Of a stretch of DNA of 57,930 nt, positions 2,592 through 26,690 are shown piece after piece. Under the pieces are notes generated by a model. That model was given only the letters and a program-made list of their open reading frames with translations. It did not search any database and had not been told where the DNA came from. Within the stretch, counting starts at the first letter, position 1. Each line of letters starts with the position of its first letter. The translations under genes were made by a program, and so were the position numbers. Source of the stretch: Actinomycetota bacterium (GTDB taxonomy: Bacteria; Actinomycetota; CADDZG01; JAHWKV01; JAOPZY01); the NCBI GenBank assembly GCA_025963875.1, contig JAOPZY010000231.1, positions 1 through 57,930 on the forward strand, given 5' to 3'.

Positions 2592-3236
2592 ATGTCAGAC
2601 GACTCCTTCACGTCGGCCTTCATCGCCGAGTCCATCGAGATCCTCCGCGGCCTCTCCGTCGAGGAGGTGGATGCCGCCATCGCATTGCTGGCCCAGACCC
2701 GCCGCCGGGGCGGCCGGGTCTTCTTTTGCGGGTCGGGAGGCGGAGCCGGGCACGCGTCGCACGCCACCTGCGACTTCCGCAAGCTGGCTGGCTTCGAGGC
2801 CTACTGCGTCTCCGACAACGTCTCCGAGCTCACGGCTCGGGTGAACGACGACGGCTGGGACAGCTCGTATGCCAACTGGCTGGCCGGCTCCAGAATCAAC
2901 GGCAAGGACTGTCTCGTGGTCTTCTCGGTCGGAGGCGGGGACGAGGAACGAGGCGTCAGCGCCAACCTGGTGAACGCCATCCACAAAGCTCGGGAGGTCG
3001 GTGCCTCCGTAACGGGAGTCGTGGGGCGCGACGGCGGAGCGTTGCGGCGCCTGGCCGATGCCTGCATCCTCGTCCCCACCGTCATCCCGAGCAACGTCAC
3101 CGCCCAGACGGAGTCCATGCAGGCGCTTCTCTGGCACCTGATGGTGATGCACCCCGACCTGCTGGCGGCCACACCGAAATGGGAGTCGATGGAAGCGGCG
3201 GCGTCGGCGCCCAGCGGCTCGATCGGTGGCGTCTAG
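2592..3236 (+). CDS. SIS-domain sugar-phosphate isomerase (GmhA/LmbN-like)
   Basis: VFFCGSGGGAGHASHATCD, ELTARVNDDGWDSSY, FSVGGG, GVVGRDGG. ATG at 2592 follows gagga. Confidence 0.85.
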   Translation: MSDDSFTSAFIAESIEILRGLSVEEVDAAIALLAQTRRRGGRVFFCGSGGGAGHASHATCDFRKLAGFEAYCVSDNVSELTARVNDDGWDSSYANWLAGSRINGKDCLVVFSVGGGDEERGVSANLVNAIHKAREVGASVTGVVGRDGGALRRLADACILVPTVIPSNVTAQTESMQALLWHLMVMHPDLLAATPKWESMEAAASAPSGSIGGV

Positions 3237-4228
3237 TGGATCAGTGCGCAAAGCCGGGCCTTGATGGGTCGCAGGGGGCCCGCATCAACCTCAGCGTGGT
3301 CCTCCCGGTGTACAACGAGGCGGCCACCGTGGGCAGCATCATTGACGACGTACTGGCGCTCGACCTCCCCGACATCGACATCGAGTTGATCATCGTGGAG
3401 AGCAACTCCAGCGACGGGAGCCGGGATGTCGTTGCCGGGTATGCAGACCACCCTCGGGTGAAGCTCGTGTACCAGGACCGCCCCTCGGGCAAGGGAAGCG
3501 CAGTTCGCGCCGGCTTCTGCCACGCTGCGGGCGACATCCTCCTTATCCAAGACGCCGACCTCGAATACCGGGTCGAGGAGTATCCCATCGTGTTGGCTCC
3601 CCTGATCGCCAACGAGGCGAACTTCGTCCTCGGGTGCCGTCACTCGCCCGGGAAGGCGATGCGCCACTTCGAAGCGGCTCGCCACATGAGTTGGCTCATG
3701 AACGGCGCCCACTGGGCCTTCACCACCATGTTCAATGTGGTGTACCGGACGAAGCTCCGGGATCCGTTCACCATGTACAAGGTCTTCCGGACATCCTGCA
3801 TCGTCGGCGTCCCGTTCACGTCCAACCGGTTCGATTTCGACTGGGAACTCGTGGCCAAGCTAGTGCGGCTCGGCAACATCCCGCTGGAGGTTCCAATCAC
3901 GTACGTGTCACGGGATTTTGACAGTGGCAAGAAGGTGCGGTTCTTCCGGGACCCCTTAACCTGGATGGTGGCCCTCGCCAAGTTCCGGTTCACGAAGCTC
4001 ACCGCCGCCGACGGAGACCCCACCGTGGCCCTTCCCCGCATGCCCGTCAGGTCCGAACCCGCTCCACTTGCACCCGTCAGGCTCGAGCCGCTGCACAAAG
4101 GTAGTCCGAACGGTGCGGCACAGTCTGAGACGTTGCCGTCGCCGCAGGCAGCGAATGGGTCGAGTCAGCCAGAGGATGGAAGCGCCTCGGCAACGTCGCT
4201 CGGGAGCGCCGGGCACACGACCGTCTAG
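3236..4228 (+). CDS. GT2, DPM1/polyprenol-phosphate glycosyltransferase-like
   Basis: LSVVLPVYNEA, GKGSAVRAG, IQDADLEY, RFDFDWE, EVPITY..R...GKK. The GTG overlaps the upstream stop; start is approximate. Confidence 0.85.
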   Translation: MDQCAKPGLDGSQGARINLSVVLPVYNEAATVGSIIDDVLALDLPDIDIELIIVESNSSDGSRDVVAGYADHPRVKLVYQDRPSGKGSAVRAGFCHAAGDILLIQDADLEYRVEEYPIVLAPLIANEANFVLGCRHSPGKAMRHFEAARHMSWLMNGAHWAFTTMFNVVYRTKLRDPFTMYKVFRTSCIVGVPFTSNRFDFDWELVAKLVRLGNIPLEVPITYVSRDFDSGKKVRFFRDPLTWMVALAKFRFTKLTAADGDPTVALPRMPVRSEPAPLAPVRLEPLHKGSPNGAAQSETLPSPQAANGSSQPEDGSASATSLGSAGHTTV

Positions 4229-4233
4229 CCGCA

Positions 4234-5148
4234 GTGGCCCCTCACCCGGCCGCCGGCGAACACAAGAATGACCCCGCACCCCGGATCGTGCCTGCATCCT
4301 GCCCAGCCTGCCTTGGGCCAGCCCAGCTGAAGCGGGCCAACGCGTACGGCGACACTTCCCTGTACCTGTGCAGCAAATGCGCCACGGAATTCATCGATCC
4401 GCAGCCGAGCGACGAGCGCCTGAACGAGATCTACTCCAGCTCGTACTACGACCCTTGGGCGGTCGACAAGGATCCAACGGTGGAAGCGATGAAGCGCACC
4501 ACCTTCGCCTGGATCCTGGCCCAGTGTTCACCACCCTCCGGCGGCCGGATCCTCGACATCGGGTGCGCCACCGGATTCCTGCTGCGAGTCGCCTTGGACC
4601 AGGGACTCGAAGCTTGGGGCATCGACCTCAATGCCTATGCCATCGAGCAGTGCCGGCAGCTGGTGCCCGACACGCACGTGCATTGCGGGTTTCTTGCCGA
4701 CCAACCCTTCGACGGCATTTCCTTCGACGCCATCTTTATGGTCGACTTCATTGAGCATGTCCGGGATCCGGAGAAGGAGCTCCGCGGGGTGTGGGAGCGT
4801 TTGTCGGAAGGCGGCGCTGCAGTGATCTCCACGCCGCGCACGGACTCAACGGTGCACGCTCTCACTGGTCGGGGGTGGCCGCAGTACCGGGAGGAACACC
4901 TGACCTACTTCTCACTCCCCGGGATCACCACACTCCTGCGTCGGTGCGGTTTCGAGGTGGTCAGGAGCCGCCCCACCCGCAAAACCGTGACCCTCAACTA
5001 CGCCCACCGGCTGATGCAGGCATACCACCAGCCCTACGCGACTCGGATCGCGCACATGATCTGGAAAGGACTTCCCTTCCTCCGAGAGGTCACGTTCCCC
5101 GTGCGGCTGGGGGAGATGACCGTGGTGGCCCGCAAGACGTCAGGCTGA
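4234..5148 (+). CDS. Class I SAM-dependent methyltransferase with N-terminal Zn ribbon
   Basis: CPAC..CSKC, ILDIGCATG, DFIEHVRDP, ISTP, EHLTYFS. Confidence 0.85.
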   Translation: MAPHPAAGEHKNDPAPRIVPASCPACLGPAQLKRANAYGDTSLYLCSKCATEFIDPQPSDERLNEIYSSSYYDPWAVDKDPTVEAMKRTTFAWILAQCSPPSGGRILDIGCATGFLLRVALDQGLEAWGIDLNAYAIEQCRQLVPDTHVHCGFLADQPFDGISFDAIFMVDFIEHVRDPEKELRGVWERLSEGGAAVISTPRTDSTVHALTGRGWPQYREEHLTYFSLPGITTLLRRCGFEVVRSRPTRKTVTLNYAHRLMQAYHQPYATRIAHMIWKGLPFLREVTFPVRLGEMTVVARKTSG

Positions 5149-7545
5149 GTTCCGGGTCCTGCGGAGCTGGGAGGTCGCAGCGACGAGGAGACCGACCAGC
5201 CCCGCGACGGGCAGGCCCCACAGCACGGCCCGGGACGCCGGCCGGTACCGGAAGACAATTCGCGATGCCTCGGCGCCCAGGACAACACCCCGGAAGGCGA
5301 CGTCGGTTGGCAGCACCGTCGCCGGCTGGCCGTTCACGGTCGCCTCCCAGCCCGGTGCGTAGGTATCGGTGAGGACCAAGAGGCTCCGTGGGCCCGCCGC
5401 AACCTGCACGACGACTTCGTCGGGGCCGTAGGACGCAATGATGGCCGGCCGGGAGGTGACGGACTGCGGATCCAGCGCCAACGGTACCGAGGACTCAACA
5501 ACCGCCTGGTGGTTGGGATCAAAGCGGTCAACCCGGGTCGTTCCATCCCCAAAGGCATGCCCGAGACCCTTCAGGTACGTCGTTGCGGCAGCCATGTCAC
5601 CCACCGTTTGGGCGTCCCGTACGGTGAACACCCGCGGGATCCGGTCAGCGTTCTCGAAGACGCTGACGCCACCGGCGGTGCCGACCAGCCGGTACTGGCC
5701 AGAGCCGTTCAAGCCGCCGGAGGACACTGACCCCGTCAGGACGTACCGGACCCCCATCAGATCGAACATGGGGTTGACTTCGATCTGGCCGAGCTTCATC
5801 CCGTCGCCGGTGAACCGATCGAAGAATGGGCCGACGAACGTGCCGACATAGGCGACGTAGCGCCGCAGGTACAACGCATCCAGGCTGCGAATGTCCTGGA
5901 TGCCGAACACCCCCGCGGTGTTGGCATAGAGCTTGCTGTCCAGACCGAAGACCCGAGCCTGCGGATCCGTGGCCGGACCGCCGGACAGGTAGTGCATCCA
6001 CGGGGGCTCCCGGTACGGGTTCGCCCGGGGCGAGTAGACGGCGGGAGCCAGCAACAGGAGGAGCTCGAGCAGCATGACGCCGGCGGCCGCCGGCGCTGCG
6101 AACCGGCGCAGGCCGGGAAGCAACCTGGGGGCCACGACGGCGGCCAGCACCCCGCCGCCGGCGGCCAGCGCCAAGGCGTAGAGGACGTACTGCCGCGTCG
6201 GGGACTGGTGTGGGGGCACTGCCAGCACCGGACCGTTCGCGATCAGGAGCGCAACGACTGCCAGAGCCAAAAGGAGGGCGGCCACGACGAACCGTCGCAG
6301 GCCGACCTCACCTGCCCTGATGGCATCGACGGCGATGCCGGCCACAACAGCAAAACCAACATTGACCAGTGGCGGTGCGAACGCGATGAAGTTGACACGG
6401 TTCAGAAGCGGGAGGCGTCCGATGAGCTGGAAACCCGGGACGCCGTGAATCTTCAGGAGCAGCACCGCACCGAGCCCGAGAAAGAACCACCCTCCGAACC
6501 GGCGCATGGTGGCCGGCGAGGCAACCGCAACCACGATGAAAGCCGCGCCGGCTGCTCCGACCCAGCTGCGCGTGGGCGAGAACCGAACAACCCTGAGCGC
6601 CGCCGGGTAGCCATTGACGAAGGGAATGAGCCAGTTGAGGAGCGTAGCTCTTGACGCTGCCCCGAGCCCTTGCCCGGTCGTGTGGACGTTGAAGGAGATG
6701 CGGAGGTACCCGAGCAACAGCAGCAGCAGAGGGGCAGCCAGGAGCAGACCGGCGACCCCGGCCCCGCCAAGGCGCAACGTCGCTCGCAACCTCCACCCCA
6801 CATCCCCGCGGGGGTTCTTGATCACGCGGTAGACGCCATAGAGCGCTGCCGCTGCCACAACGAGGAGGCTGGCCTCCGGCATGCCGACGAGGATGGTGGC
6901 GGCAAGAGCGGCCGCAAGGGCGGCGACCCACACGATCCTGTCCGATTGCACCGAGCGGTCCACGAACAGAAAGAGGATAGGAAGATAGCTGTAGACGCGG
7001 ACAAACGAATTGTTGGCGTCCGTGGCAAAGTAGCCGGACAGCACGAATGCGCCAGTCCCTGTGAGCGCCCCCAGTGTGCTGAGTCCAAGGTTGCGAAGGA
7101 ACAGATACATGCCTACAGCCCCGAGGACCAGGGAAAAGAGCAGCGTGAGGTCCCAGGTCAATGTCGTTGGATGCAGATTGACGGCAAGCATCATGGGGTC
7201 GAAAACAGACGACTGACCGTTGGCAGCGAGTGGTGTCCCCGCTCCCTGGTAGGGATTCCACAGCGGCACGACGCCGTGCGCGATCTGGCGGTGAGCAACC
7301 TGGGCCCAGGGCAGCATCGCCCATGCGGATGCTCCCGGGTCGACACGGAAGTTGTCGTTGGACAAACGCCTGATGCCCGTCGGCAGGTCGGTCCCGTTGA
7401 CGCCGGGCATGACACTGGACGTGTCGAACGTCTTCCCCCCGAACGCGACGCTGTGATAGGCGATCAGCACCAGGGCCACCGCGGCAAGCATGCCAAGGAG
7501 ATCCCGGCGCCATGGCCTCGTCGGAGGCTTACCGGCCGCCGGCAT
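5140..7545 (-). CDS. YfhO-family polytopic membrane protein (GT-C-type glycosyltransferase)
   Basis: PLWNPYQGAGTPLAAN, many transmembrane segments, C-terminal LVLTDTYAPGWEATVNG..FRGV..FRYRP. Confidence 0.85.
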   Translation of the reverse strand: MPAAGKPPTRPWRRDLLGMLAAVALVLIAYHSVAFGGKTFDTSSVMPGVNGTDLPTGIRRLSNDNFRVDPGASAWAMLPWAQVAHRQIAHGVVPLWNPYQGAGTPLAANGQSSVFDPMMLAVNLHPTTLTWDLTLLFSLVLGAVGMYLFLRNLGLSTLGALTGTGAFVLSGYFATDANNSFVRVYSYLPILFLFVDRSVQSDRIVWVAALAAALAATILVGMPEASLLVVAAAALYGVYRVIKNPRGDVGWRLRATLRLGGAGVAGLLLAAPLLLLLLGYLRISFNVHTTGQGLGAASRATLLNWLIPFVNGYPAALRVVRFSPTRSWVGAAGAAFIVVAVASPATMRRFGGWFFLGLGAVLLLKIHGVPGFQLIGRLPLLNRVNFIAFAPPLVNVGFAVVAGIAVDAIRAGEVGLRRFVVAALLLALAVVALLIANGPVLAVPPHQSPTRQYVLYALALAAGGGVLAAVVAPRLLPGLRRFAAPAAAGVMLLELLLLLAPAVYSPRANPYREPPWMHYLSGGPATDPQARVFGLDSKLYANTAGVFGIQDIRSLDALYLRRYVAYVGTFVGPFFDRFTGDGMKLGQIEVNPMFDLMGVRYVLTGSVSSGGLNGSGQYRLVGTAGGVSVFENADRIPRVFTVRDAQTVGDMAAATTYLKGLGHAFGDGTTRVDRFDPNHQAVVESSVPLALDPQSVTSRPAIIASYGPDEVVVQVAAGPRSLLVLTDTYAPGWEATVNGQPATVLPTDVAFRGVVLGAEASRIVFRYRPASRAVLWGLPVAGLVGLLVAATSQLRRTRNSA

Positions 7546-8260
7546 CCAACCTTCGCGCCGCGCCCAGCCCCTGCAGGTAGCCGTTGGTCTCCTGGAAACC
7601 CCCCTCGCTCCCGATCTCGTAGAAGCGCTCCGCCACTTCGAACCCCATCAGCTCCGTGCCGGCGATCAGCGATTGCAGGGCCTCCCCGAGGTCGAAGGTA
7701 GTTCCCGGGGCGAACGGAGCGAAGGCGCCGGCCGTGAGGATGCTCATGCCGTAGTCGATGTACTCGTAGGTCCCGGGGGGCGCTCCCTTGCGGTAGTCCA
7801 CGACCAGCCCTTCCCGGAAAGCGACGTTGCTCGGATCCCAGGCGTCACGGTTCCTGAGCACCGTCATCAGCCCCTTCCGCCCGGCGCGCCGGAACGCCGC
7901 CTCGACCTCGGCCATCGGGACCTGGAGGTAGGTGTCGCCGTAGGTGACCCAGAAGGCATCGCCGAGCAGCGGGAGGGCACGGCGCACGGCACCCCCCGTG
8001 CCGAGGAGCGCCTCGCCGTCGGGCAGGATCTCGATGTCGAGCCCGTAGGCGGCGCCGTCTCCCACATGCTCCGCGATGGCGCCTGCGCCGTGGCCGAGCA
8101 GCATCACCACCCGTGTGGCCCCCTGCTCGGCGAGCTGGCCCAGCTTGAAGTCGATGAACGGGCGGCCGGCCACCTCCAGGAGCGCCTTAGGGAGGCGGGG
8201 CCCGGTTCGTTTGGCCATCCGGGTCCCGAGGCCTCCCGCCAGCACGGCGACCGGGTACAT
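7529..8260 (-). CDS. Sugar-1-phosphate nucleotidyltransferase (HddC/LmbO-like)
   Basis: VLAGGLGTRM..PKALLEVAGRPF, LLGTGGA, TYGDTY, FYEIGS. Confidence 0.9.
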   Translation of the reverse strand: MYPVAVLAGGLGTRMAKRTGPRLPKALLEVAGRPFIDFKLGQLAEQGATRVVMLLGHGAGAIAEHVGDGAAYGLDIEILPDGEALLGTGGAVRRALPLLGDAFWVTYGDTYLQVPMAEVEAAFRRAGRKGLMTVLRNRDAWDPSNVAFREGLVVDYRKGAPPGTYEYIDYGMSILTAGAFAPFAPGTTFDLGEALQSLIAGTELMGFEVAERFYEIGSEGGFQETNGYLQGLGAARRLDAGGR

Positions 8261-8264
8261 GCGA

Positions 8265-9242
8265 CTAGACGACCACCAGGGCCGAGCCCTCGTAGTCGAA
8301 GCTGAAACGGACCTCCGGCAGCCCGAGGCGCGCCATGGCCGCCCGGAGGTCGGCCTTGGCTTCTGAGTAGAAGAGCAGGAAACCGCCGCCCCCGGCGCCG
8401 ACCAGCTTGCCGCCGGAGGCGCCGCACTTCAGCCCGGCGTTGATCCAGGCGTCGATCTCGAGGTTCGTGGCACTTGGGGAACGCTGGCGCTTCAGCTCCC
8501 ACTGGAGTGTCATGAGCTTGGCGAAGGTGGGCAGGTCGCCCGTGACGAGGGCCTGGAAGCTCTCCTGGCCGATCTCCGTGACGCGGCCGAGGTTGCTCGA
8601 CGTCTCCGTGTTGCCGGCCCTGGACTTGGCGTCCTGGTCGGCGAGGACCTCGGAGGCGGATCGTCGCTGGCCCGTGTAGAAGAGAAGGAGGTTCTCCTCG
8701 AGCCGCCACCGTGTGTCCTCGGACATGGGTACGGGCACGACCTCCACCGAGTCGTCGGGGTGGAAGCGGAATGACGTGACCCCGCCGAGGGCGGCGATGT
8801 ACTGGTCCTGCTTCCCGACGGGCTCGCCCAGGCGGTCGATCTCGATGTGGCAAGCCTGCTCGGCCAGCTCCCGGTTGGAGACCAGCCGCCGCTGGTGGGC
8901 GTGCAGGGCCTTCAGGACGCCGACCGTGAAGCTGCCCGAGGAACCCAGCCCCGTGTTCGCCGGGATGTCGGCCATCGAGGAGATCTCGACCCGACGCTCG
9001 ACACCCGTGAGCCGGAGCGCCTCCCGCAGCAGTGGGTGCCGGATGTCCGACACCCTGGTGACGTGCTCGACCTGCGAGTACTTGAGCAGGATGTCGTCGT
9101 CGAAGTTCTGGTTGACGGCGATGTAGACGTGCCGGCTGATGGCGGCCGCCACCAGGAAGCCCCCCGACACCCGGTAGTGGGAGGGCAGGTCGGTGCCGCC
9201 GCCGCCAAGCGAGATCCTCATCGGTGTGCGCGTGATGATCAA
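8265..9242 (-). CDS. GHMP-family sugar-phosphate kinase (HddA/LmbP-like)
   Basis: TRTPMRISLGGGGTD, DIPANTGLGSSGSF, GKQDQY, GGKLVGAGGGGF. The TTG start overlaps the upstream TGA. Confidence 0.9.
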   Translation of the reverse strand: MIITRTPMRISLGGGGTDLPSHYRVSGGFLVAAAISRHVYIAVNQNFDDDILLKYSQVEHVTRVSDIRHPLLREALRLTGVERRVEISSMADIPANTGLGSSGSFTVGVLKALHAHQRRLVSNRELAEQACHIEIDRLGEPVGKQDQYIAALGGVTSFRFHPDDSVEVVPVPMSEDTRWRLEENLLLFYTGQRRSASEVLADQDAKSRAGNTETSSNLGRVTEIGQESFQALVTGDLPTFAKLMTLQWELKRQRSPSATNLEIDAWINAGLKCGASGGKLVGAGGGGFLLFYSEAKADLRAAMARLGLPEVRFSFDYEGSALVVV

Positions 9243-10225
9243 CTGCGGTAAGCCTCCTCGACGACGGTGAAGGCGGCGATGCAGTCTTCGATGCTCGCCC
9301 CCCGGCTCTCCCCCCCGGTCGCCGCCGAGAGGAAATCGGCGACCTCGAGCGCCCAGGACCGGTCCGCCTGCGGCCATTCCCAGATCGTGGTCGCCGGTGG
9401 CCCCATCTCGGGGAGCATCTCGTAGAGGGCGAGCCGCTCCACCCCGTAGCTGCCGCCCAGGCCCGTGATCTCCAGCTTCGCGGTGCGGTAGGCGATCTCG
9501 AGGGAGAAGAGGTTCTTCCACTCCGTCCACGAGGCGTGCAGCCACGCGAAGCCGCCCGAGCGGGGACGGAGGGCGAGGAAGGCGTTGTCCTCGACGTCGC
9601 TCTGCCAGAAGTCGGTCCTGCACTCGGCGAAGACGAGATCGACGTCGCCGGCGATGTACCGGGTGAGGTCGATGAGGTGGATCCCCTGGTCCACGAGCTC
9701 ACCTCCGCCAGAGGCCTCCCGGCGGGCGCGCCACTCCTTCTCGTAGCCGGGCCGGCCCCCGTGGCCGTAGCGCCCACGGATGTGCATGAGGTCGCCGTAG
9801 GGCTTCTGCGACGCGATGTCCCTGGCCCGGAGCAGCGACGGGTGGAAACGGTGGTTGAAGCCCACCTTGACCACCCTGCCGGCTGCCCGAGCGGCGTCCC
9901 GCACCGCCACCAGGTCCTCCAGGCGGTGCGCCCCCGGCTTCTCGACGAGGACGTGGCACCCTGCCTCGAGCGCCGCCAGCGTCGAGGGGCCGAGGGCCGA
10001 GTGGACCGTCGCCACGATGGCGACATCGGCCTCGACGCCCTCCAGCCCCGCCTGGATCGAGTCCGCGACCCGGACGCCGGCAGCGGTCGCCGGCAGGGTT
10101 GCGGCCAGGGCCTCGGCTCGGCCGAGGTCGAGGTCGACGAGCGCGACCACCTCCACCCCGGCCGGGAGGGCCTGCAGGCGCTTGCGGCCGATGAGCCCGC
10201 AGCCGATCACCGCCACGCGGGTCAT
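9239..10225 (-). CDS. Gfo/Idh/MocA oxidoreductase (LmbZ-like family)
   Basis: VAVIGCGLIG, HVLVEKP, VGFNHRF, GGGELVDQGIHLID. ATG at 10225 follows ggagg. Confidence 0.9.
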   Translation of the reverse strand: MTRVAVIGCGLIGRKRLQALPAGVEVVALVDLDLGRAEALAATLPATAAGVRVADSIQAGLEGVEADVAIVATVHSALGPSTLAALEAGCHVLVEKPGAHRLEDLVAVRDAARAAGRVVKVGFNHRFHPSLLRARDIASQKPYGDLMHIRGRYGHGGRPGYEKEWRARREASGGGELVDQGIHLIDLTRYIAGDVDLVFAECRTDFWQSDVEDNAFLALRPRSGGFAWLHASWTEWKNLFSLEIAYRTAKLEITGLGGSYGVERLALYEMLPEMGPPATTIWEWPQADRSWALEVADFLSAATGGESRGASIEDCIAAFTVVEEAYRS

Positions 10226-11187
10226 GTCCGGACCTCCTGCCTGGTCAGGATCCATGTGTTGTTCGAGAGGTAGTCGACCGTGCGCTCCACGGCCTGGCGG
10301 ATCGTGTAGGCGGGTTCCCAGCCGATCGCCCGCATCTTGGCGGTGGCGAGGTAGATGAAGGGGTTGTCCCCGATCCACCCGCGGTCGCCTCCGGTGTAGG
10401 TCACGTCCGGGCGAAGCCCGAGGCGCTCGCAGATCCAGCCTGCCGACTGGTCGACGGTGCAGTAGTCCTCGACCCCGAGGTTGTAGACCTCGTGGCCCCC
10501 GGTGCGGGGCAGCCGGTCCAGGATCGCCGCAACGCAATCGGTGACGTCGAGGTAGCTCTTGCGTTGCTTGCCGTCGCCGAGGATGGTGAGCTTCGTAGGG
10601 TCCTCGTTGAGCTGGCGCATGAAATCGACCACGTGGCCGTGGGTGTAGCGGGCGCCCATGATCGACACGAAGCGGAAGACGGTGGTGGTGATGCCGCACC
10701 CCTCGGCGTAGGCGGCGATCAGGCCCTCGCCCGCCAGCTTGGATGCGCCGTAGAGCGACGTCTGGATGGGGAAGGGACAGTCCTCAGGGGTGGGGATCAC
10801 CGTCGCCTCGCCGTAGACGGAGCCCGTCGAGGAGAACAGCAGGCGGGGGACCCCTGCGACGCGGACCCCTTCCAGCACGTTGTGCGTCACGACGATGTTC
10901 TGCTTCAGGTCGCGGTCCGGTGTGTTCCAGCCGAAGCGGACGTCGGCGTTGGCTGCCAGGTGGATGACGGCGTCCGCCCCCCGGAAGAGGTCGGGCAGGG
11001 CGTCACCGCTCTCGAGCAGGTCCAGGGTGGCGAGCCGGAAGCCCGGCTCGCCCACCGCCCGCTCCAGGAACCGGACGCTGCCGGTGGAGAAGTTGTCGAT
11101 CCCGACCACCTGGTGGCCGGCGGCCAGGAGCGCGTCGGTGGTGCTGGACCCGATGAAACCGGCCGCCCCGGTGACGACGACCTTCAC
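10222..11187 (-). CDS. NAD-dependent nucleotide-sugar epimerase/dehydratase (GalE/LmbM-like)
   Basis: VTGAAGFIGS, HLAA, FSSTGSVYG, YGASK, GDGKQRKSYLDV. Confidence 0.9.
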   Translation of the reverse strand: MKVVVTGAAGFIGSSTTDALLAAGHQVVGIDNFSTGSVRFLERAVGEPGFRLATLDLLESGDALPDLFRGADAVIHLAANADVRFGWNTPDRDLKQNIVVTHNVLEGVRVAGVPRLLFSSTGSVYGEATVIPTPEDCPFPIQTSLYGASKLAGEGLIAAYAEGCGITTTVFRFVSIMGARYTHGHVVDFMRQLNEDPTKLTILGDGKQRKSYLDVTDCVAAILDRLPRTGGHEVYNLGVEDYCTVDQSAGWICERLGLRPDVTYTGGDRGWIGDNPFIYLATAKMRAIGWEPAYTIRQAVERTVDYLSNNTWILTRQEVRT

Positions 11188-12047
11188 CGGCGCTCCACCT
11201 CCCCGAACAGCACGCCGTCGATCCGGCGGAGGGTGTACGCGGAGGTGCCGTTCAGCTGGTCCGCCTCCTCGCCGATCCGCCCCAGCGGGTCCCACTTGGC
11301 GCTGAGCAGCTTCCCGGTGAGGCAACCGGAGCGCTCCGACGCCAGGAACAGCATGGCCTCCCCGACCTTTGCGAGCGAGTCGCCACCTTCACGCTGGGCC
11401 ACGCTGCTCGCATGGAAGGCCTCGCCGGCCACCTCCGGGCCGGCTTCGATCACGGCATCGATGAGCGACGTGCTGATCGCGCCGGGCGCCACGGCATTGA
11501 CCAGGATGCCGAAGGGGGCCAGCTCCTTGGCGAGCGTCTCGGTGAGCCCGGCGACGGCTGCCTTCGACGCCGTGTAGGCGCTCACGCGCGCCGGCGTCCC
11601 CGGGCCGCCGACACCGCCGCCGCCGACGTTGATGATCCGGCCTGCTCCCGCCGCCTGCATGGCAGGGGCGAACGCCCGGATGACGTGCATCACCCCGAGC
11701 AGGTTCACCGACACCGCCGACGCCCAGGCATCCGGCTCCACCTCGGTGATGAGGCCGACGGGCCCGTAGATGCCGGCGTTGTTGACGAGGACGTCCACCC
11801 GGCCGAAACGCTCCCCCACCGCATCGGCGAAGCCCCGCACACTGGGGTAGTCGGCCACATCGACGGAGCGGACCAGGACCTCCGTGCCGAAGCGCTCGTG
11901 AAGATTCGCCCGCACCTCCTCCAGCTCGTCCGGCGACCGGGAGCACAGCGCGAGCTTGGCCCCGGCCTCGGCCAGGGTCTCGGCGGTGTAGCGGCCGATC
12001 CCCCGCCCGGCACCGGTGACGACACAGACTTTACCGGCGAGGGACAT
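11184..12047 (-). CDS. Short-chain dehydrogenase/reductase
   Basis: VTGAGRGIG, LVNNAG, YTASK, VNAVAPG. Confidence 0.9.
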   Translation of the reverse strand: MSLAGKVCVVTGAGRGIGRYTAETLAEAGAKLALCSRSPDELEEVRANLHERFGTEVLVRSVDVADYPSVRGFADAVGERFGRVDVLVNNAGIYGPVGLITEVEPDAWASAVSVNLLGVMHVIRAFAPAMQAAGAGRIINVGGGGVGGPGTPARVSAYTASKAAVAGLTETLAKELAPFGILVNAVAPGAISTSLIDAVIEAGPEVAGEAFHASSVAQREGGDSLAKVGEAMLFLASERSGCLTGKLLSAKWDPLGRIGEEADQLNGTSAYTLRRIDGVLFGEVERR

Positions 12048-12049
12048 CT

Positions 12050-13342
12050 CTATGCAGGCCTGCCGACGACGGCGTGGACAAAGCCGGCGTCCGCAAGCCG
12101 CACGGCATCGAGGAACCCTGCGGGATCGAAGACGACCCTCCGCCGCATGGTCGCGCCCAGCCGCTCAGCGTCCAGCTCCTTGTACTCGGGCCAGGCGGTC
12201 ATCAGCACGAGCGCGTCCGCTCCGGCCGCCGCCGCGTAGGGGTCGTCCGCCACCGCGAAGCCCAGGTCCGCGCCCGCCGAGGAGTCGACCGCCGGATCGT
12301 GGGCCACCACCGGCGCGCCCCCCGAGACCAGGCCGCGGGCAAGCTCGACGCTCTGGCTGCGCCGCAGCGTGCTCGTGCCGGGCTTGTAGGTCAGCCCGAG
12401 CACACCGATCCGGGCACCGGCGAGCTCGCCCACCAGTGCCCCGACGCGGTCGACCGTGGACGAAAGGCGGCGGTGGTTGACCGACCAGACGGCGTCGAAG
12501 AGCTCCGCCGGGACCCCGTGCTCCCGACCTGCCGTCCGCAGCGATTGGAGATCCCGCCCGAGGGTCCCGCCGGCGAAGCCCAGCCCCGGGAGGATGGGCG
12601 CCCGGGGGCTGACGCGAGCGTCGGCCTTCAGGGCGGCGGCCACATCCCAGGCGTCGGCGCCGACGGCCTCGCAGAGGTCGGAGAGCTGGCTCATGAAGCT
12701 GATGCACGTGGCGAGGTAGGCGTTCATCGCATGCTTGGACATCTCCGCACTGGCGACGCTCATCGTCACCTTGGGGCAGTCCAGCGTCGCGAACAGGCTC
12801 CCGACCCGCTGGGCGACCTCGGGGTCGTCGGCCCCGATGACCAGCCGGTCGGGGTGGAAGAACACGTCCAGCGCCCCGCCGAGCCGCAGGTTCTCCGGCA
12901 TGCAGGCCACCGGGATCGGCCGGCCCGTGGCCTCACCGATGCTCGCAGCCAGGCGGTGGGTGGTGCCCACCGGCACCTGGCTCATCACAATCAGAACGGT
13001 GGGGGCACGCAGCATCGAGCCCACCTGCTTCACCAACTCCTCCAGCGCGTCCAGCGAGGCGGTGTCGTCGTCGAGCACCTCGACGTCGGTGGCGACGACG
13101 GTGAACTCCGGGTCGCCGAGGCCGGGGTCGGAGGTGGTGACCGGGTGCAGGGATCCCGCCGCGATCTGCCGGGCGATCAGGTCGTCCAGACCCGGCTCCC
13201 GCACCGGCGCGGCTCCGGCACGGAGTTGAACGATGGTGGTCTCCGAGAGGTCGGTCACCCACACCTCGTGACCGAGAGCGGCAAGACCTGCCGCTACGAC
13301 GGATCCGAGATGCCAGGCCCCCCAGACTCCTATGGTCGACAA
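12050..13342 (-). CDS. UDP-glucose/GDP-mannose dehydrogenase homolog lacking the catalytic Cys (LmbL-like family)
   Basis: PENLRLG, SAEMSKHAMNAYLA..ISF, GLTYKPGT, MTAWPEY. The usual GGSC/GGxC site reads FAGGTLGRD. Confidence 0.85.
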   Translation of the reverse strand: MSTIGVWGAWHLGSVVAAGLAALGHEVWVTDLSETTIVQLRAGAAPVREPGLDDLIARQIAAGSLHPVTTSDPGLGDPEFTVVATDVEVLDDDTASLDALEELVKQVGSMLRAPTVLIVMSQVPVGTTHRLAASIGEATGRPIPVACMPENLRLGGALDVFFHPDRLVIGADDPEVAQRVGSLFATLDCPKVTMSVASAEMSKHAMNAYLATCISFMSQLSDLCEAVGADAWDVAAALKADARVSPRAPILPGLGFAGGTLGRDLQSLRTAGREHGVPAELFDAVWSVNHRRLSSTVDRVGALVGELAGARIGVLGLTYKPGTSTLRRSQSVELARGLVSGGAPVVAHDPAVDSSAGADLGFAVADDPYAAAAGADALVLMTAWPEYKELDAERLGATMRRRVVFDPAGFLDAVRLADAGFVHAVVGRPA

Positions 13343-13352
13343 GAGCGCTGCG

Positions 13353-14024
13353 TCACGACATCCACTTGGCGAAGTCGTTGCAGAACTGGGCCACGACCTC
13401 GTCGGTCTTGGGGTGCTGGCACATCTTGACGAGGAACGGCGGCGGGACGGTGACGATGTGGGCGCCCGCCAGGATCGCCTCGTTGATGTCCATGATGTGG
13501 CGGATGGATCCGACGATGATCTCGGCGTCGCTGCCCGACCGGTCCATGGCGGCCCGCACGTCCGTCACGACCCTGGCAGCGTCGTACCCGGTGTCGCGGA
13601 TGCGGCCGTAGAAGAGGCTGACGTAGCGTGCCCCCGCGTCGAGGGCCATGACCGCCTGGTTGAACGACATGCAGCACGTGGCGTTGACCGGGATCTTCAT
13701 GTCGGTGAGCCGGGTGATGAGGCGCAGTTCGTCCCACCCGACCGGCACCTTGATCGTGAGGCCCTTGTAGTCGCCGAAGTGCGACACGAGCTCCTCGGCC
13801 TGGCGGATCATCTCGTCGGGGTCCATCGTGAACACCTCGACGGACAGCGGCAGCGGGGCACCGAACTTGGTGATCAGGTTGATGATGTCCCGGACGATCT
13901 CCCGGTAGTCCCGCTTCTCCTCCTTGGCGAGGATCGACGGGTTGGTGGTGACGCCCGAGGCGAAGCCCCGGGAAAGAGAGGCCTCAATCTCCGTCAAGTT
14001 TGCAGAATCGACGAATAGCTTCAT
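13353..14024 (-). CDS. Transaldolase, short TalC/FSA type (LmbR-like role proposed)
   Basis: MKLFVDSAN, GVTTNPS, SVEV, IKVP, NATCC, SLFYGR, GSIRH, HPKTD. Confidence 0.9.
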   Translation of the reverse strand: MKLFVDSANLTEIEASLSRGFASGVTTNPSILAKEEKRDYREIVRDIINLITKFGAPLPLSVEVFTMDPDEMIRQAEELVSHFGDYKGLTIKVPVGWDELRLITRLTDMKIPVNATCCMSFNQAVMALDAGARYVSLFYGRIRDTGYDAARVVTDVRAAMDRSGSDAEIIVGSIRHIMDINEAILAGAHIVTVPPPFLVKMCQHPKTDEVVAQFCNDFAKWMS

Positions 14025-14136
14025 ATACGCACCTCGGGTCGGTTCCAGACGCGGAGACCTTATAGCATCGGCTGCGTGTGGTGCAGGTTCACCGAACTCC
14101 TCACACTGGCATCCGGAGCGGTTGTTATTAACCCGT

Positions 14137-14153
14137 CCGGTCCTCTGGACCGG
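14137..14153. promoter_or_regulatory. Inverted repeat ccggtcc-tct-ggaccgg between the XRE gene stop and the transaldolase promoter region
   Basis: Perfect 7-bp arms. Could be a terminator hairpin or an operator. Confidence 0.4.
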
Positions 14154-14154
14154 C

Positions 14155-15492
14155 TCAGGCGGGCAGGAGCGTGTCGGCGAGATCGAAGAAGTCGGCCACA
14201 GGGTGTGAGTCCCGATGGGCGCTGAGCCGGTGGCGCAGGTCGGCCACGGCGTCGGCCGACCTGGACGAACGGACCGTGGCGGCGAGCCGGACAGTAGAGG
14301 CGGCCTCTGTGGCGGCCGCCTGCAGGTCGTGGTTGGCGAGCGCCGCCCGGGCGAGCGTGGCGTGCGCGAGGGAGCCTCTCCTCGCCCGGCTCTGGCGTTG
14401 GGCCTCGGCAGCGGAGCGGGTGGCGAACCGGGTGGCCTCCTCCGGCTGGTCGAGGTCCCGGAAGGCATGGCCGTACTCGCCGTTCAGGTAGGCCGCGTCG
14501 ATGAAGCGAGCCCACTCGGGTTCTTCGGGCAGGTGGATGGCGCCGGCGGCCCGTTCTGATTCGAGGATGGAGTATGCCGCGGCCTGGCCGTCCCCGAGAG
14601 CGGCCTCGGCTCGTGCCTGCAGGGCCCACAGGTCGGCGAGGCAGGCGGGGCTGCGGCCATGGCGGAGGCCGGCCCGTCCTGCCCGAGCGAGCTGGAGACC
14701 CTGGTCGGGGTGCCCGGTGAGGGTTGCCTGGTCCGAGAGCCCGGCGAGGACATGGGCACCCAGCTCCGGGCTGCGGGCCTCGTGGGAGAGCCGGAGCGCC
14801 TGGATGAGGTAACGCTGGGCCAGGACGTGCTCCCCGTCGTCGAAGGCCATCCAGCCGATCAGGTAGAGCTGCTCGGCACCGGCTTCGTAGAGCGTCCGGC
14901 CGGCGTCGGTGGAGGCGTCGTTCGAGCGGAGCAGGGGTGTGACCGTCGAGGTCAGGTAGGCGGCAAGTTGCTGGCGGGCGTGGCCACCCCCACGCATGAC
15001 GTCCAGCTCCTGGAAGAAACCGAACATCCGACGGATGGCGTCGACCTGGTCGCTGGTCACCTTGCGCGTGGGGGAGGTGGCCTCCTCCAGAGTGGCGAGG
15101 AGCCAGTCCCGGCTTGGTCCGATCGAGGCGGCTACGGCGAAGAGGGCTGTCTTGAGGAAGGTTCTGCGTTTGATGTCGGCCTGCCCCAGCTGGTCGACGG
15201 TCTCGAGGGTGTCAGGGATCGAGGGGGTGTACTCGAGTCCAAGGCGCTGAAGGTCCTCGGATGGCTCGTCGAAGCTGAGCGGGTCGGTGACGAAGAGGGC
15301 GGCAAGGAGCCGCCGGTAGCTGGGGCTGGGTTGCTTCTGGCCGCGCTCCCATTTGGAGACCATGGCGGCGTCCACGCCAATACGTTCGCGGTTCTGCTCC
15401 CATGCGACGCGTGCCAGCTCGGCGGCGAGCTCTTCCTGCGTGAGCCCCCGCTCGATGCGCCGCTGGCGAAGCTGTTCGTTCCAAGCAGTCAT
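14155..15492 (-). CDS. XRE-family HTH regulator with C-terminal helical-repeat (TPR/NsdA-like) domain, copy 1
   Basis: LRQRRIERGLTQEELAAEL..VSKWERG, internal RRTFL motif, GWMAFDDG..AQRYLIQAL helical repeats typical of actinobacterial regulators. Confidence 0.85.
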   Translation of the reverse strand: MTAWNEQLRQRRIERGLTQEELAAELARVAWEQNRERIGVDAAMVSKWERGQKQPSPSYRRLLAALFVTDPLSFDEPSEDLQRLGLEYTPSIPDTLETVDQLGQADIKRRTFLKTALFAVAASIGPSRDWLLATLEEATSPTRKVTSDQVDAIRRMFGFFQELDVMRGGGHARQQLAAYLTSTVTPLLRSNDASTDAGRTLYEAGAEQLYLIGWMAFDDGEHVLAQRYLIQALRLSHEARSPELGAHVLAGLSDQATLTGHPDQGLQLARAGRAGLRHGRSPACLADLWALQARAEAALGDGQAAAYSILESERAAGAIHLPEEPEWARFIDAAYLNGEYGHAFRDLDQPEEATRFATRSAAEAQRQSRARRGSLAHATLARAALANHDLQAAATEAASTVRLAATVRSSRSADAVADLRHRLSAHRDSHPVADFFDLADTLLPA

Positions 15493-15496
15493 GTCA

Positions 15497-15534
15497 GGAC
15501 CGATGAGGGACCGACGAGGACCACCTCGCGGACC
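15497..15534. promoter_or_regulatory. Four helically phased GGACC direct repeats in the divergent intergenic region
   Basis: GGACC starts at 15497, 15508, 15518 and 15530 (spacings 11, 10, 12). Confidence 0.55.
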
Positions 15535-15569
15535 TGTTGGGTGAAAGCGGTTCCGCTCAGGATACCGAC

Positions 15570-15818
15570 ATGAGTGGACGGTCGGCCGCGCGACCGCAGT
15601 TCTTGCGCATCTGCTGGGAGATCGCCAACGAAGAGGGGGGCCGGGTGGTTGAGGCCACCCTGTGCCGTGACCACCGGCGCGAGATTGCCCGCAAGTACCC
15701 GGACGCTCGAGGCTCCGGCCAACTCGGTGACTCGTGTGACGCCTGCGCAGGCCGGCAGCCGAGCAGGATCGCAGGTGGCCTCGATGGGCACAGCATCGGA
15801 AGAGTCCCACACCCGTGA
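15570..15818 (+). CDS. Small putative Zn-binding protein (CxxH...CxxC), copy 1
   Basis: ICWE..ATLCRDH..GDSCDAC. A clear paralog at 43854-44075 supports coding status. Confidence 0.75.
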   Translation: MSGRSAARPQFLRICWEIANEEGGRVVEATLCRDHRREIARKYPDARGSGQLGDSCDACAGRQPSRIAGGLDGHSIGRVPHP

Positions 15819-16045
15819 GCGCCACCGTCCCACGGCCCGACCATCCTCGGCAAGCGCCTGATGCCGAGCGGATGGACCGCATCCTTGCCAAGCTGGGTCA
15901 TGTCTGGCGTCGCGTGCCTGACTGGCGCCTCGCATGGCTGATCGTCAACCTGGTCCCTCCCGGACCCAAGGCGTCGGACACGGCTATCGAGCTCGAGCTG
16001 GATCGTCTGCTCAACCCCGACCTCGGACGGGCTGAGCCAGGATGA
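15815..16045 (+). CDS. Small helical protein reminiscent of YihD/DUF1040-like proteins, copy 1
   Basis: ERMDRILAKLGHVWRRVPDWRLAWL. GTGA coupling to the upstream gene; paralog at 44081-44302. Confidence 0.7.
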   Translation: MSATVPRPDHPRQAPDAERMDRILAKLGHVWRRVPDWRLAWLIVNLVPPGPKASDTAIELELDRLLNPDLGRAEPG

Positions 16046-16586
16046 AGTCCACGCAGGCCCGCAGGTCACCGGTGAACCGGGCGGCGAGGCCATCGGGCGG
16101 CCCGCCGATGCTCGTGGCGTCCCAGCTCCAGGGCCGTTCCACGAGCAGTCCTTGCATGCCGGCGGCCTCGGCGGCTGCGAGATCCACCCAACGGTCGCCG
16201 ATCAGCCAACTCCGAGCCAGATCCACGCCCCAGTCCCGTGCCCCGGCGTGGATGAGGCCGGGCTTCGGCTTGCGGCAGAGGCAGCCGTCTTTCGTGTCGT
16301 GGGGGCAGACGTAGACGGCGTCGATGGGCAGCGCGCCACGAAGTGCCTCGTTGATCTGCTCCACAGCATCCAGGCTGAGGTCCCCCCGTGCGACGTCGGG
16401 CTGATTGCTGACGACGAGCAGCATGTAGCCCGCTGCTCGAAGCCGCACGAGATCCCCCTTTGCCGTGGGAAGGATCTGCAACTCGGCGACCGTGCGGGGC
16501 GTCGAGGCTACGGCGCCCTCCATACGGACCTCGTTGAGGACGCCGTCCCGGTCCAGGAAGACGGCGGCACGCCCAGATTCGACCAT
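16011..16586 (-). CDS. HAD-IIIA sugar-bisphosphate phosphatase (GmhB/LmbK-like)
   Basis: AVFLDRDGVLN, VVSNQ, CPH..C.CRKPKPG, SWLIGDR..D. Confidence 0.9.
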   Translation of the reverse strand: MVESGRAAVFLDRDGVLNEVRMEGAVASTPRTVAELQILPTAKGDLVRLRAAGYMLLVVSNQPDVARGDLSLDAVEQINEALRGALPIDAVYVCPHDTKDGCLCRKPKPGLIHAGARDWGVDLARSWLIGDRWVDLAAAEAAGMQGLLVERPWSWDATSIGGPPDGLAARFTGDLRACVDFILAQPVRGRG

Positions 16587-16721
16587 GTGCTGCCGGAGCA
16601 TAGTGGAGGGAACGGTTCATCTGACCAAGTCTGGGCGGGTGTCCCTTGAGGAGATGGGCATCTATATGCTTTGTGCGTCGGTTCGACTGTTCAGCGTCGC
16701 TTGGTCCAGGAGAATCGAACC

Positions 16722-18101
16722 ATGACGGAATCGGCCTCCTGCAGCATCGGCGTCTGGGGAACCTTCGACACCGACGCCTTCTACGACGCGCTCGTGCCCC
16801 GGGTCCTCCGGCGTGAGCTCAAGGCGCGGCTCCCGGGCGCCAGGATCATCACGTTCGCCCCGTACGGATCCCTGAGGCCCACGCCGCACGACGGCGGCGA
16901 GCCCTCCGAGCCCCTCGGCCGGTGGACTCCCGACCGGGCAGCGGCGATGGCGTCGGACCTCGACTGCATCCTCCTCACTTGCACCGATCCGCCGCTCGAC
17001 CAGCAAAGCCTCGCCCGGGCCTACGGGGTGGACCGCGCGGAGCTCGAAGCGCTGCAAGTCCAGCGTTGGTTCGTGGACGGGCCCGGTCCCGCGACGGAGG
17101 AGCGCTGCCCGGTGATGACGTTCGGGTCCGATCTCGGGGTGCTCGCCCCGAAGCTGTTCTCCCCCGAACTTCTCGCTAAGCGCCTCGAGTACCTGTGGCT
17201 CATGGGTTGGTACCCGCCCGAGGGTGCCGCCGTCGTGGTCGAGGGGGACGCAACTCTCCTCCCGGTCGTACCCGACCTCGTCGGCGCGCTGTCCGGATTT
17301 CTGGCGTCGGAGCCCGATCTCAAGGTCGTCCTTGGCGAACTGGGATCTCCGGGCGACGCCGACTTCGCCTCGGAGGTCGCCGCCGGGCTGCCGCCCGAGT
17401 CGGTGCACCGCCTCCCCCGCTGCGCCGGGATCGAGGACATCGCCGCCGCCATCGCCAACTGCGCCATCTTCGCAGGGAGTTCCGAGCGCGCAGGCCGCGT
17501 CGCGCAGGCGTACGGGCGGGCCTGGGTGACGCTCGATCCCGCCGCTCTCCCCGCCTCGGAGGACTTCGAACGTGCACGCAAGGCCGATGCCGCTCCGGCG
17601 GGCGGATCCGCACCGGCAGCGCAGGCCGAGGCCGAGCTCGACCTTGTCGCCGAGATCGCCCGGACCGCCGCATTCGCACGCAGGCAGAAGGAGGCACGCA
17701 TGCCCGAGACGCAACACCCGGCCGAAACCGAGGACGCGCTCGGCCAACTCCAGGTGGCCCACGAAGCCCGGAGCCGGCGCCTGGCCACGGAGCGCATGGT
17801 CTTCGCGAACCATCTCCACAAGGCCGAGGCCGAGATCGGCCGGTTGAAGGAGGAGCTGGCGCGCCTGCGAGAGGAGCTGTCCCGTGCCGACGGCCGGGCC
17901 GCCCAGGCCGAAGCGGCCACCCGGGCCGAGACTGACGCACGCCTGGCCGTCGAGGAGGAGCTGGCAGGGCTCAGGGCCACCCGCACCTTCCGCTACACCG
18001 CCGAGCTCCGCAGCGTCTACGGACGGCTCCGGAAGCTGGGCGACACCTCCCCGCCGACCGCCGACCCCCCGCCTCCGGCCGAGACGAAGCCCAGTCAGTG
18101 A
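16722..18101 (+). CDS. Polysaccharide pyruvyltransferase-like protein (degenerate) with C-terminal coiled coil
   Basis: IGVWGTFD..F.D.L.P N-terminus, DIAAAIANCAIFAGSS, long coiled coil ending TRTFRYTAELR. Confidence 0.55.
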   Translation: MTESASCSIGVWGTFDTDAFYDALVPRVLRRELKARLPGARIITFAPYGSLRPTPHDGGEPSEPLGRWTPDRAAAMASDLDCILLTCTDPPLDQQSLARAYGVDRAELEALQVQRWFVDGPGPATEERCPVMTFGSDLGVLAPKLFSPELLAKRLEYLWLMGWYPPEGAAVVVEGDATLLPVVPDLVGALSGFLASEPDLKVVLGELGSPGDADFASEVAAGLPPESVHRLPRCAGIEDIAAAIANCAIFAGSSERAGRVAQAYGRAWVTLDPAALPASEDFERARKADAAPAGGSAPAAQAEAELDLVAEIARTAAFARRQKEARMPETQHPAETEDALGQLQVAHEARSRRLATERMVFANHLHKAEAEIGRLKEELARLREELSRADGRAAQAEAATRAETDARLAVEEELAGLRATRTFRYTAELRSVYGRLRKLGDTSPPTADPPPPAETKPSQ

Positions 18102-26682: not shown

Positions 26683-26690
26683 TTACGGTT

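Follow-up and report, generated by a model that had tools for sequence, protein, structure and literature searches.

The window examined here is a 57,930 nt stretch of DNA from an Actinomycetota bacterium (GenBank assembly GCA_025963875.1, contig JAOPZY010000231.1, forward strand). Positions 2,592 to 16,586 of it hold a cassette of sugar-nucleotide genes resembling the pathway that supplies lincosamide antibiotics with their eight-carbon sugar. ORF calls and Pfam and NCBIfam profile scans of the window found nine enzyme families, all as intact open reading frames (ORFs) with high GC content at third codon positions (0.81–0.94), and a full set of transaldolase, SIS isomerase, kinase, phosphatase and nucleotidyltransferase genes is present in this one locus. 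An initial annotation, made from the letters alone, had described two convergent blocks encoding these nine families; both the blocks, which meet at 5140–5148, and the families were confirmed. Functions of the lincosamide enzymes (Lmb, lincomycin; Ccb, celesticetin) are as given in Table 2 of PMC4351081 and in the portions of PMC12945683 that deal with them. The nine enzymes of the cassette, followed by the other genes of the region, are:

2592..3236, plus strand: SIS-fold ketose-phosphate isomerase, LmbN/CcbN-like (34% identity to CcbN, with which it groups)
7529..8260, minus strand: sugar-1-phosphate nucleotidyltransferase, LmbO/CcbO/HddC-like (33% to CcbO)
8265..9242, minus strand: GHMP anomeric kinase of the HddA/LmbP family, cassette-specific branch (33% to CcbP)
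9239..10225, minus strand: Gfo/Idh/MocA oxidoreductase, LmbZ/CcbZ orthologue (37% to CcbZ)
10222..11187, minus strand: NAD-dependent epimerase, LmbM/CcbM-like, GDP-sugar 4-epimerase subgroup (38% to CcbM)
11184..12047, minus strand: classical short-chain dehydrogenase/reductase (SDR) of a cassette-specific family and clade, FabG-like fold
12050..13342, minus strand: UDP-glucose dehydrogenase (UGD) homologue without the catalytic Cys, LmbL/CcbL orthologue (41% to CcbL)
13353..14024, minus strand: TalC/MipB-type transaldolase, candidate for the LmbR/CcbR role (37% to CcbR; second copy in the genome)
16011..16586, minus strand: HAD-IIIA bisphosphate phosphatase, LmbK/CcbK/GmhB-like (41% to CcbK)
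3236..4228, plus strand: family 2 glycosyltransferase (GT2) acting on polyprenol phosphate, similar to dolichol-phosphate-mannose synthase and ArnC (GTG start overlapping the isomerase stop)
4234..5148, plus strand: class I S-adenosylmethionine-dependent methyltransferase (Pfam Methyltransf_23)
5140..7545, minus strand: YfhO-like GT-C membrane glycosyltransferase, 801 residues (weak Pfam YfhO match, below cut-off; fold matches)
14155..15492, minus strand: NsdA-family HTH/TPR regulator (NF053720, 354 bits)
1..2559, plus strand: 5'-truncated protein with two GT2 domains (Pfam PF00535 twice), a context of backbone glycan synthesis outside the nine-gene set

The plus-strand block thus consists of the isomerase, GT2 and methyltransferase genes. 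The minus-strand block reads phosphatase, NsdA-family regulator, transaldolase, UGD homologue, SDR, epimerase, Gfo/Idh/MocA protein, kinase, nucleotidyltransferase and membrane protein, with all intergenic gaps from the transaldolase gene to the GT-C membrane protein gene between −17 and +10 bases. The earlier description of this block needs one correction, in that about 2 kb carrying the NsdA-family gene separates the phosphatase gene from the transaldolase gene. In a genome from the same taxonomic order (G148) these two genes are direct neighbours. The NsdA-like gene is missing at that place, for which reason it was rejected as a pathway regulator; it probably lies outside the pathway. No sigma-70-type promoter was found in 13900–16800. 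The window has two places at which an XRE/NsdA-type regulator is paired with a small ORF rich in Cys (14155–15492 with ~15570–15818, the pair that splits phosphatase and transaldolase, and 42547–43671 with ~43760–44075), the likeness of the two small ORFs being judged by eye.

Reference proteins were obtained through a kinase search of 401 Streptomyces genomes, 14 of which matched. Genome G503 carries the celesticetin cluster: over 355 residues its CcbD is identical in every position to the PDB chain, the carrier domain of CcbZ (PDB 7YN3) forms the end of its Gfo protein, and it has an LmbT-like transferase as well. Genome G639 holds a close copy of this cluster. Because no lincomycin (lmb) cluster was identified among the 401 genomes, our comparisons rest on the Ccb proteins of G503 and G639. 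Identities between the window proteins and CcbR, N, P, K, O, M, L and Z range from 33 to 41%, and each of these Ccb proteins finds its best match in the host genome in a window gene. Trees were built with IQ-TREE (LG+G4, no mixture model) from 38–69 rows per family, the cassette rows being subsampled to 28 chosen loci. Outgroups were the best-scoring non-cassette matches, mostly actinobacterial, and rows from the unpublished genomes G088, G001 and G048 served as outgroup only, with none of the conclusions depending solely on them. Rows termed heptose-type are loci that lack an LmbL-like gene together with E. coli GmhA and GmhB, a set without Campylobacter or Yersinia Hdd sequences.

The UGD homologue and its Gfo partner gave the clearest placements. 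The tree sets nine canonical enzymes apart from a group made up of the window UGD-like protein, CcbL and every one of the 28 cassette rows (support 100/100), and forcing CcbL together with the canonical dehydrogenases was rejected (p=0.005). Trp10, Gln122, Asn151, Thr260 (at the catalytic Cys site) and Arg263 are present in both the window protein and CcbL and in none of 14 canonical enzymes. The informative motif comparison is that of window, CcbL and canonical enzymes, since the cassette rows were fetched by these same motifs and counting them there would be circular. An ordinary UDP-glucose dehydrogenase was rejected as the identity of 12050..13342, the catalytic Cys being absent. When set against 22 other members of its family from actinobacteria, the Gfo protein groups with CcbZ (SH-aLRT 99); a tree constrained to join CcbZ to six outgroup rows was strongly rejected, a rejection inflated by the mixed nature of those rows. 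A search of annotated phages with the Gfo protein gave no match. On these sequence grounds we firmly regard the two proteins as orthologues of CcbL and CcbZ, which in lincosamide biosynthesis turn GDP-octose towards GDP-lincosamide, according to the relevant part of PMC12945683.

Four further enzymes are likely orthologues of CcbM, CcbN, CcbK and CcbO, judging by their best trees. The epimerase clade that includes Ccb has a support of 86, with one non-cassette row inside. Its best PDB matches are 3EHE, 8RDG and 3AW9 (186–263 bits, vs at most 126 for other entries), a set described as a GDP-sugar 4-epimerase subgroup preferring GDP-sugars in PMC12171764, whose text on this subgroup makes no mention of LmbM or lincomycin. 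The isomerase groups with CcbN (97/97), the two having an S-V-x-G insertion in common, and its site His57/Asp61/Glu174/His182 is that of CcbN and differs from the His/Glu/Gln/His site of GmhA. The phosphatase groups with CcbK and the cassette enzymes, E. coli GmhB and 22 further enzymes falling elsewhere (SH-aLRT 88, from a quick tree), and the nucleotidyltransferase with CcbO (SH-aLRT 96), with one non-cassette row inside the group and five paralogues from cassette loci outside it. The window proteins score below the curated cut-offs of the GDP-heptose enzymes, with bits against cut-off of 60/209 for GmhA (CcbN itself reaching 86), 125/600 for HddA, 53/300 for HddC and 75/150 for GmhB. The HddA cut-off is a strict one, reached by none of 26 scanned kinases, and NCBIfam HddA scores did not separate the kinases.

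All nine genes occur together in an archaeal metagenome-assembled genome (MAG; L002), a Paceibacterota (Patescibacteria) MAG (L003), G148, a plasmid of Rhizobium sp. CB3060 (L056) and plasmid 3 of Lawsonia intracellularis (L057). Because the same nine recur together in unrelated phyla, their grouping is not due to chance. Scanning metagenomes with the UGD-like alignment yielded at least 593 confirmed matches, the best 80 of which were fetched as loci; 16 of these 80 carry all nine genes, and most others are short contigs. At fixed bit-score thresholds, the 26 metagenome loci of at least 12 kb contained the SDR in 24, Gfo in 24, the kinase in 21, the epimerase and the isomerase in 20 each, the transaldolase and the phosphatase in 17 each, the nucleotidyltransferase in 13 and a DegT aminotransferase in 2. 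Among the host's kin the distribution is patchy: by score and identity a close UGD-like orthologue is present in 2 of 30 relatives (G699 and G148), the others matching at 31–38%, and the matches aligned from seven of these others are canonical Cys enzymes. Four viral contigs (L171, L173, L174, L176) carry a full-length LmbL-type gene with several partners. Many of the viral contigs L178–L219 have a shortened LmbL-like gene, mostly of ~250 aa, accompanied by Gfo, isomerase, transaldolase and kinase genes in L180, L187, L188 and L207, by SDR and DegT aminotransferase genes in L190–L194 and L205, and in L216 also by a major capsid gene. The viral LmbL-like genes possibly serve phage sugar modification of the virion or DNA.

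The remaining activation enzymes, kinase and transaldolase, do not follow the Ccb proteins as closely. The initial annotation had held that grouping of each enzyme with its Lmb/Ccb counterpart would support a lincosamide-type pathway. That expectation was borne out firmly for L and Z and less firmly for M, N, K and O; it failed for the kinase, which falls away from CcbP, and gave a mixed result for the transaldolase, which is not the sister of CcbR. From the trees of the individual families, we see no reasonable doubt that the tailoring half of the cassette is lincosamide-type, and we take the activation half to be of the same kind with parts exchanged.

The product is probably an octose, and several observations weigh against this. 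No tested sequence feature fixes chain length, and identities to the Ccb proteins are low throughout. A joint clade of the cassette kinases with CcbP was rejected by the approximately unbiased (AU) test (p=0.003), the two belonging to different branches of one family, and CcbP itself sits with actinobacterial heptose-type kinases (support 99). Placement of CcbN with the heptose-type enzymes was not rejected (p=0.45 and 0.20), and the Asp61/Glu174 pair had to be discarded as a mark of cassette isomerases, since 14 of 25 non-cassette enzymes also have it. The window transaldolase is 35–40% identical to housekeeping enzymes vs 37% to CcbR, a position as sister to the housekeeping group was not rejected (p=0.37), it has Glu63/Phe138 where CcbR has Gln/Leu, and most cassettes (27 of 36) use a different transaldolase subtype. 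Some of these points would suit an unusual heptose. Sedoheptulose-7-P would then come from the transaldolase and be converted to GDP-heptose by the SIS isomerase, kinase, phosphatase and nucleotidyltransferase, while the epimerase, UGD-like protein, Gfo protein and SDR would alter the stereochemistry at C4/C6 or remove a hydroxyl; Streptomyces would later have stretched the pathway to eight carbons. The best PDB matches of the kinase are heptose kinases, its family is that of HddA, and GDP-heptoses are common in envelopes. We nevertheless hold the heptose explanation to be unlikely. Next to a transketolase the genome encodes a housekeeping transaldolase (contig G000:C263), and it has a separate module of GmhA, HldE and a GT9 heptosyltransferase-like gene (contig G000:C41, L312:2906-8588), by its gene content an ADP-heptose module in a monoderm, so that a second, divergent gene set would be redundant for ordinary heptose. 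The window isomerase scores lower on the GmhA model than CcbN does. Wang et al. 2020 is said to assign a 6,8-dehydration to the L/Z pair, a step that needs a leaving C8 hydroxyl, and the L and Z orthologues are kept here as a pair.

The tree separates 22 housekeeping enzymes from CcbR and the transaldolases of all cassettes (SH-aLRT 100), and the window enzyme retains Asp6, Lys92, Glu63, Phe138 and the phosphate-site Arg/Ser. Gln/Tyr in place of Glu/Phe distinguishes fructose-6-P aldolase from transaldolase; the former identity was rejected on this rule. The 27 deviating transaldolases (L056, L057 and most metagenome loci) are of a long-branch subtype resembling the TIGR02134 'staphylococcal' type. 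With the TalC type in the window and a TIGR02134-like one in those 27, the transaldolase has been exchanged. Rhizobium plasmids (H39–H90) often carry another, more distantly related group of kinases (~41%), which are either fused to a HAD phosphatase or located next to one, and Lawsonia has both kinds, the distant one on plasmid 1 (H36–H38). On G000:C263 (L313) a phosphoribulokinase gene lies beside the transaldolase and transketolase genes, hinting at a Calvin cycle in the host organism.

Where Streptomyces has the aminotransferase CcbS, the cassette has the SDR. The initial annotation had noted that an SDR stands in for the aminotransferase, and the metagenome bears this out: with room of more than 2.5 kb past the UGD-like gene, 43 of 47 loci have the SDR and 3 a second extended SDR after Gfo (46/47 together), and the single locus with neither has a canonical UGD. 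The variant with the extended SDR replacing the classical one was seen in L091, L099, L110, L145 and L164; among cassette proteins, the closest relatives of CcbM and CcbZ come from several of these loci. The 24 cassette SDRs in the tree form one clade (SH-aLRT 100), and the window SDR keeps Tyr158, Lys162 and Asn115 as well as Arg37 of the NADP(H) type. Its model is FabG-like, and fold and Atlas searches with it returned only generic FabG-like matches and no informative neighbour. Among the 24 window proteins scanned there was no DegT-type aminotransferase, nor LmbS, LmbT or LmbC/D (CcbC/D were not searched genome-wide), and CcbT had no match in the host genome at E 1e-8. In the 80 metagenome loci a DegT aminotransferase lies near the cassette in 3 and an LmbT-like transferase in none.

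Two findings speak against a simple reductase in this slot. All 68 cassette SDRs have Gly (Gly143 in the window) in place of the catalytic Ser, which all seven outgroup SDRs keep; in 52 of the 68, the window SDR not among them, the preceding position is a Ser. Because the catalytic Ser is absent, plain ketoreduction by this enzyme is not assured. In addition, three full-length DegT aminotransferases (37% to CcbS) are encoded on other host contigs and could act in trans. An octose could therefore be made while the SDR does another job, such as C6/C7 epimerisation with the UGD-like protein or enone reduction, or a DegT enzyme from elsewhere in the genome could aminate the sugar. A shorter version of the cassette would also fit such an arrangement. 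Locus L049 (G145:C6:122000-141999) has, among methyltransferases, the epimerase, isomerase, phosphatase, transaldolase, a kinase split in two frames and the nucleotidyltransferase, and no L, Z or SDR gene was found within 20 kb; with these six enzymes it indicates that shorter cassette versions exist. We consider a different role for the SDR, or amination in trans, rather improbable: an SDR, classical or extended, accompanies L and Z in nearly every roomy locus, which is the pattern expected of a terminal reductase, the enzyme retains the Tyr/Lys/Asn residues as well as the Arg of NADP(H) type, and two of the three aminotransferases share a separate locus with its own Gfo, epimerase and priming transferase genes. 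Provided that the sugar is an octose, the SDR is likely its reductase.

The genes next to the cassette point to the cell envelope, and the surface-polymer destination proposed in the initial annotation gains support from the GT2 and GT-C genes next door and from glycan loci elsewhere. The GT2 has dolichol-phosphate-mannose synthase and ArnC as its best PDB matches, and close homologues adjoin the cassette in L041, L057 and 8 of the 80 metagenome loci. The model of the YfhO-like membrane protein has a pLDDT of 93.7 and a GT-C fold; Foldseek matches are best to AftD, ArnT, Emb and OST, and modest (E 5e-7 to 1e-3, TM 0.3–0.45). From sequence and model, the GT2 and the membrane protein are predicted to be a GT-A/GT-C pair of the kind that glycosylates wall polymers outside the cell. 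Elsewhere the window carries GT2, GT4 and FkbM genes, and host contig C5 has Wzm/Wzt with FkbM and GT4. Flippase candidates lie elsewhere in the host genome (two GtrA-family and six PF03706 genes), none being in the locus, and no LpxC turned up in the genome, which is 94.6% complete. In 28 loci 224 non-core ORFs were called, and 119 proteins from 17 of these loci were scanned. Glycosyltransferases are present in 15 of the 17 scanned flanks, along with Wza/Wzb/Wzc, WbaP-type priming transferases, a Wzx and FkbM methyltransferases, and in the archaeon AglB/STT3 and a GtrA domain.

Alternatively, by analogy with lincosamides, the sugar could end up in a small molecule that is secreted or in a free glycolipid, with the surrounding glycan genes being incidental. 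The only characterised relatives do make antibiotics, and four Streptomyces genomes (G413:C8, G675:C13, G508:C17, G479:C6; L072–L079) hold orphan lincosamide-like clusters in the lmb order R-S-O-P-Z-N-M-L-K, each accompanied by genes for an LmbT-like transferase and for an ABC exporter. We find this very improbable for the cassette: LmbT-like genes are lacking from the 80 loci, no NRPS or PKS domain was found among the 119 flank proteins, the glycan assembly genes accompany the cassette in nearly all scanned flanks, and the GT-C gene overlaps the nucleotidyltransferase gene. The cassette is also present in the 0.8–1 Mb genomes of the archaeon and the Patescibacteria MAG. As to the orphan clusters themselves, no CcbC/D was seen among their listed ORFs, and that of G479 has a gene resembling seryl-tRNA synthetase (NF002120, 110 bits), to which inspection by eye adds another Gfo protein and an aldo-keto reductase. 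They possibly encode an undescribed aminoacylated octose natural product.

Some further genes of the host may bear on the same wall glycan or its surroundings. A parallel module on G000:C189 (L307) has a transketolase split in two genes, a GT2, a YfhO-like membrane protein and a methyltransferase, and may decorate that glycan with a branched sugar. By eye, positions 26152–30331 of the window encode several successive secreted proteins that are rich in Ser/Thr and have pilin-like N-termini and Ig-like repeats, and positions 44430–44951 a small secreted repeat protein resembling a ricin-B-type lectin; both are possible glycosylation targets.

In the pathway that we infer, from its substrates, chain length and GDP as the nucleotide to the SDR step and the acceptor, the dedicated transaldolase would move a three-carbon unit from fructose-6-P or sedoheptulose-7-P to ribose-5-P, giving octulose-8-P. 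The cited literature in PMC5854111 has LmbR make octulose-8-P from ribose-5-P. The SIS isomerase would convert this to octose-8-P, and the kinase, phosphatase and nucleotidyltransferase would produce GDP-octose. The LmbM-like epimerase and the LmbL/LmbZ-type pair would epimerise and dehydrate it to GDP-6-keto-8-deoxy-octose, as in lincosamides, and the NADPH-type SDR would then reduce C6, where Streptomyces transaminates with LmbS/CcbS, to yield a neutral GDP-8-deoxy-octose. The GT2 would load the sugar on polyprenol phosphate, a flippase encoded elsewhere would move it outward, and the YfhO-like GT-C would add it as a side branch to a wall glycan, probably an ABC-exported polymer of the surrounding GT2/GT4/FkbM genes. 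The methyltransferase (4234..5148) could O-methylate the sugar or the glycan. Taken as a whole, from activated eight-carbon aldose to lipid-carried wall glycan, we give this scheme an even chance of being correct in full.

As to origin, the initial annotation had named the locus a possible evolutionary source of the antibiotic pathway. In the best trees, subgroups of the cassette enclose CcbK (95) and CcbM (93). When Ccb was held outside the window and cassette rows, AU tests gave p=0.042 for the HAD phosphatase, marginally in favour of the claim, and p=0.144 for the epimerase and 0.307 for the UGD-like protein, which lend it no support; the isomerase tree with Ccb outside the cassette scored above the free tree. 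Because of these results the nesting of Ccb inside the cassette is not established. The cassette is far more widespread than lincosamide clusters, and on tree evidence it is a plausible source of the lincosamide sugar pathway. The broader proposition, on which we are tentative and somewhat doubtful, is that an old cross-domain pathway supplies GDP-8-deoxy-octose to surface glycans of actinobacteria, proteobacteria, Patescibacteria, archaea and some viral contigs, and that lincosamide producers took it over, swapping the reductase for an aminotransferase.

The cassette is real, widespread and uncharacterised, and is probably a variant of the lincosamide octose pathway that serves the envelope. 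Its chemistry would mostly repeat the solved lincosamide pathway, and its product is predicted from the genes. To our knowledge straight-chain octoses occur in a few antibiotics and not as ordinary envelope sugars. A search of the open literature found no paper placing an octose pathway in envelope loci, primary lincosamide papers and most subscription glycan-structure papers lying outside that search; this want of a positive precedent counts against an envelope octose. If the proposal is true, an undescribed sugar class is added to the prokaryotic glycome, the origin of the lincomycin sugar is explained, and hundreds of glycan loci annotated as heptose, galactokinase or UDP-glucose dehydrogenase encode a C8 sugar. 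It would also provide soluble enzymes for GDP-octose synthesis and a likely origin for the lincosamide sugar pathway. A deoxy-octose residue of ~206 Da, as computed from the formula, is the target mass for glycomics, and the claim is directly testable because cultured carriers exist in Rhizobium sp. CB3060, R. jaguaris and the pig pathogen Lawsonia intracellularis.

Several known systems resemble parts of this locus. The archaeal GDP-sugar 4-epimerases (PhGal4E_1, PDB 8RDG; 3EHE; 3AW9), the best structural matches of the window epimerase, are single enzymes with no pathway. Multi-component transmembrane glycosylation systems (CsbB/GtcA/YfhO; GtrABC) combine a GT-A that loads lipid phosphate with a YfhO-type GT-C, as set out in the pertinent part of PMC8035078. 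The window likewise has a polyprenol-phosphate GT-A and a GT-C, but this pair is tied to its own nucleotide-sugar pathway, has no flippase in the locus, includes only a distant relative of YfhO, and belongs to a module found in some cassette loci only. The GDP-D-glycero-alpha-D-manno-heptose pathway (GmhA, HddA, GmhB, HddC) has the same four folds, the same isomerase-kinase-phosphatase-guanylyltransferase logic and an envelope destination. It differs in that the window proteins stay below its curated cut-offs, that the isomerase and phosphatase stand apart from E. coli GmhA/GmhB, and that the cassette has five extra enzymes, including the dedicated transaldolase and the L/Z pair. With the lincosamide GDP-octose pathway the cassette shares eight of nine families at 33–41% identity to Ccb, L and Z being orthologues with shared active-site changes. 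In contrast to that pathway, it has an SDR and no LmbS/CcbS, it lacks the LmbT S-glycosyltransferase, the carrier domain and the condensation enzymes, its kinase comes from another branch and its transaldolase is not sister to CcbR, and it is located in glycan loci across bacteria and archaea rather than in an antibiotic cluster.

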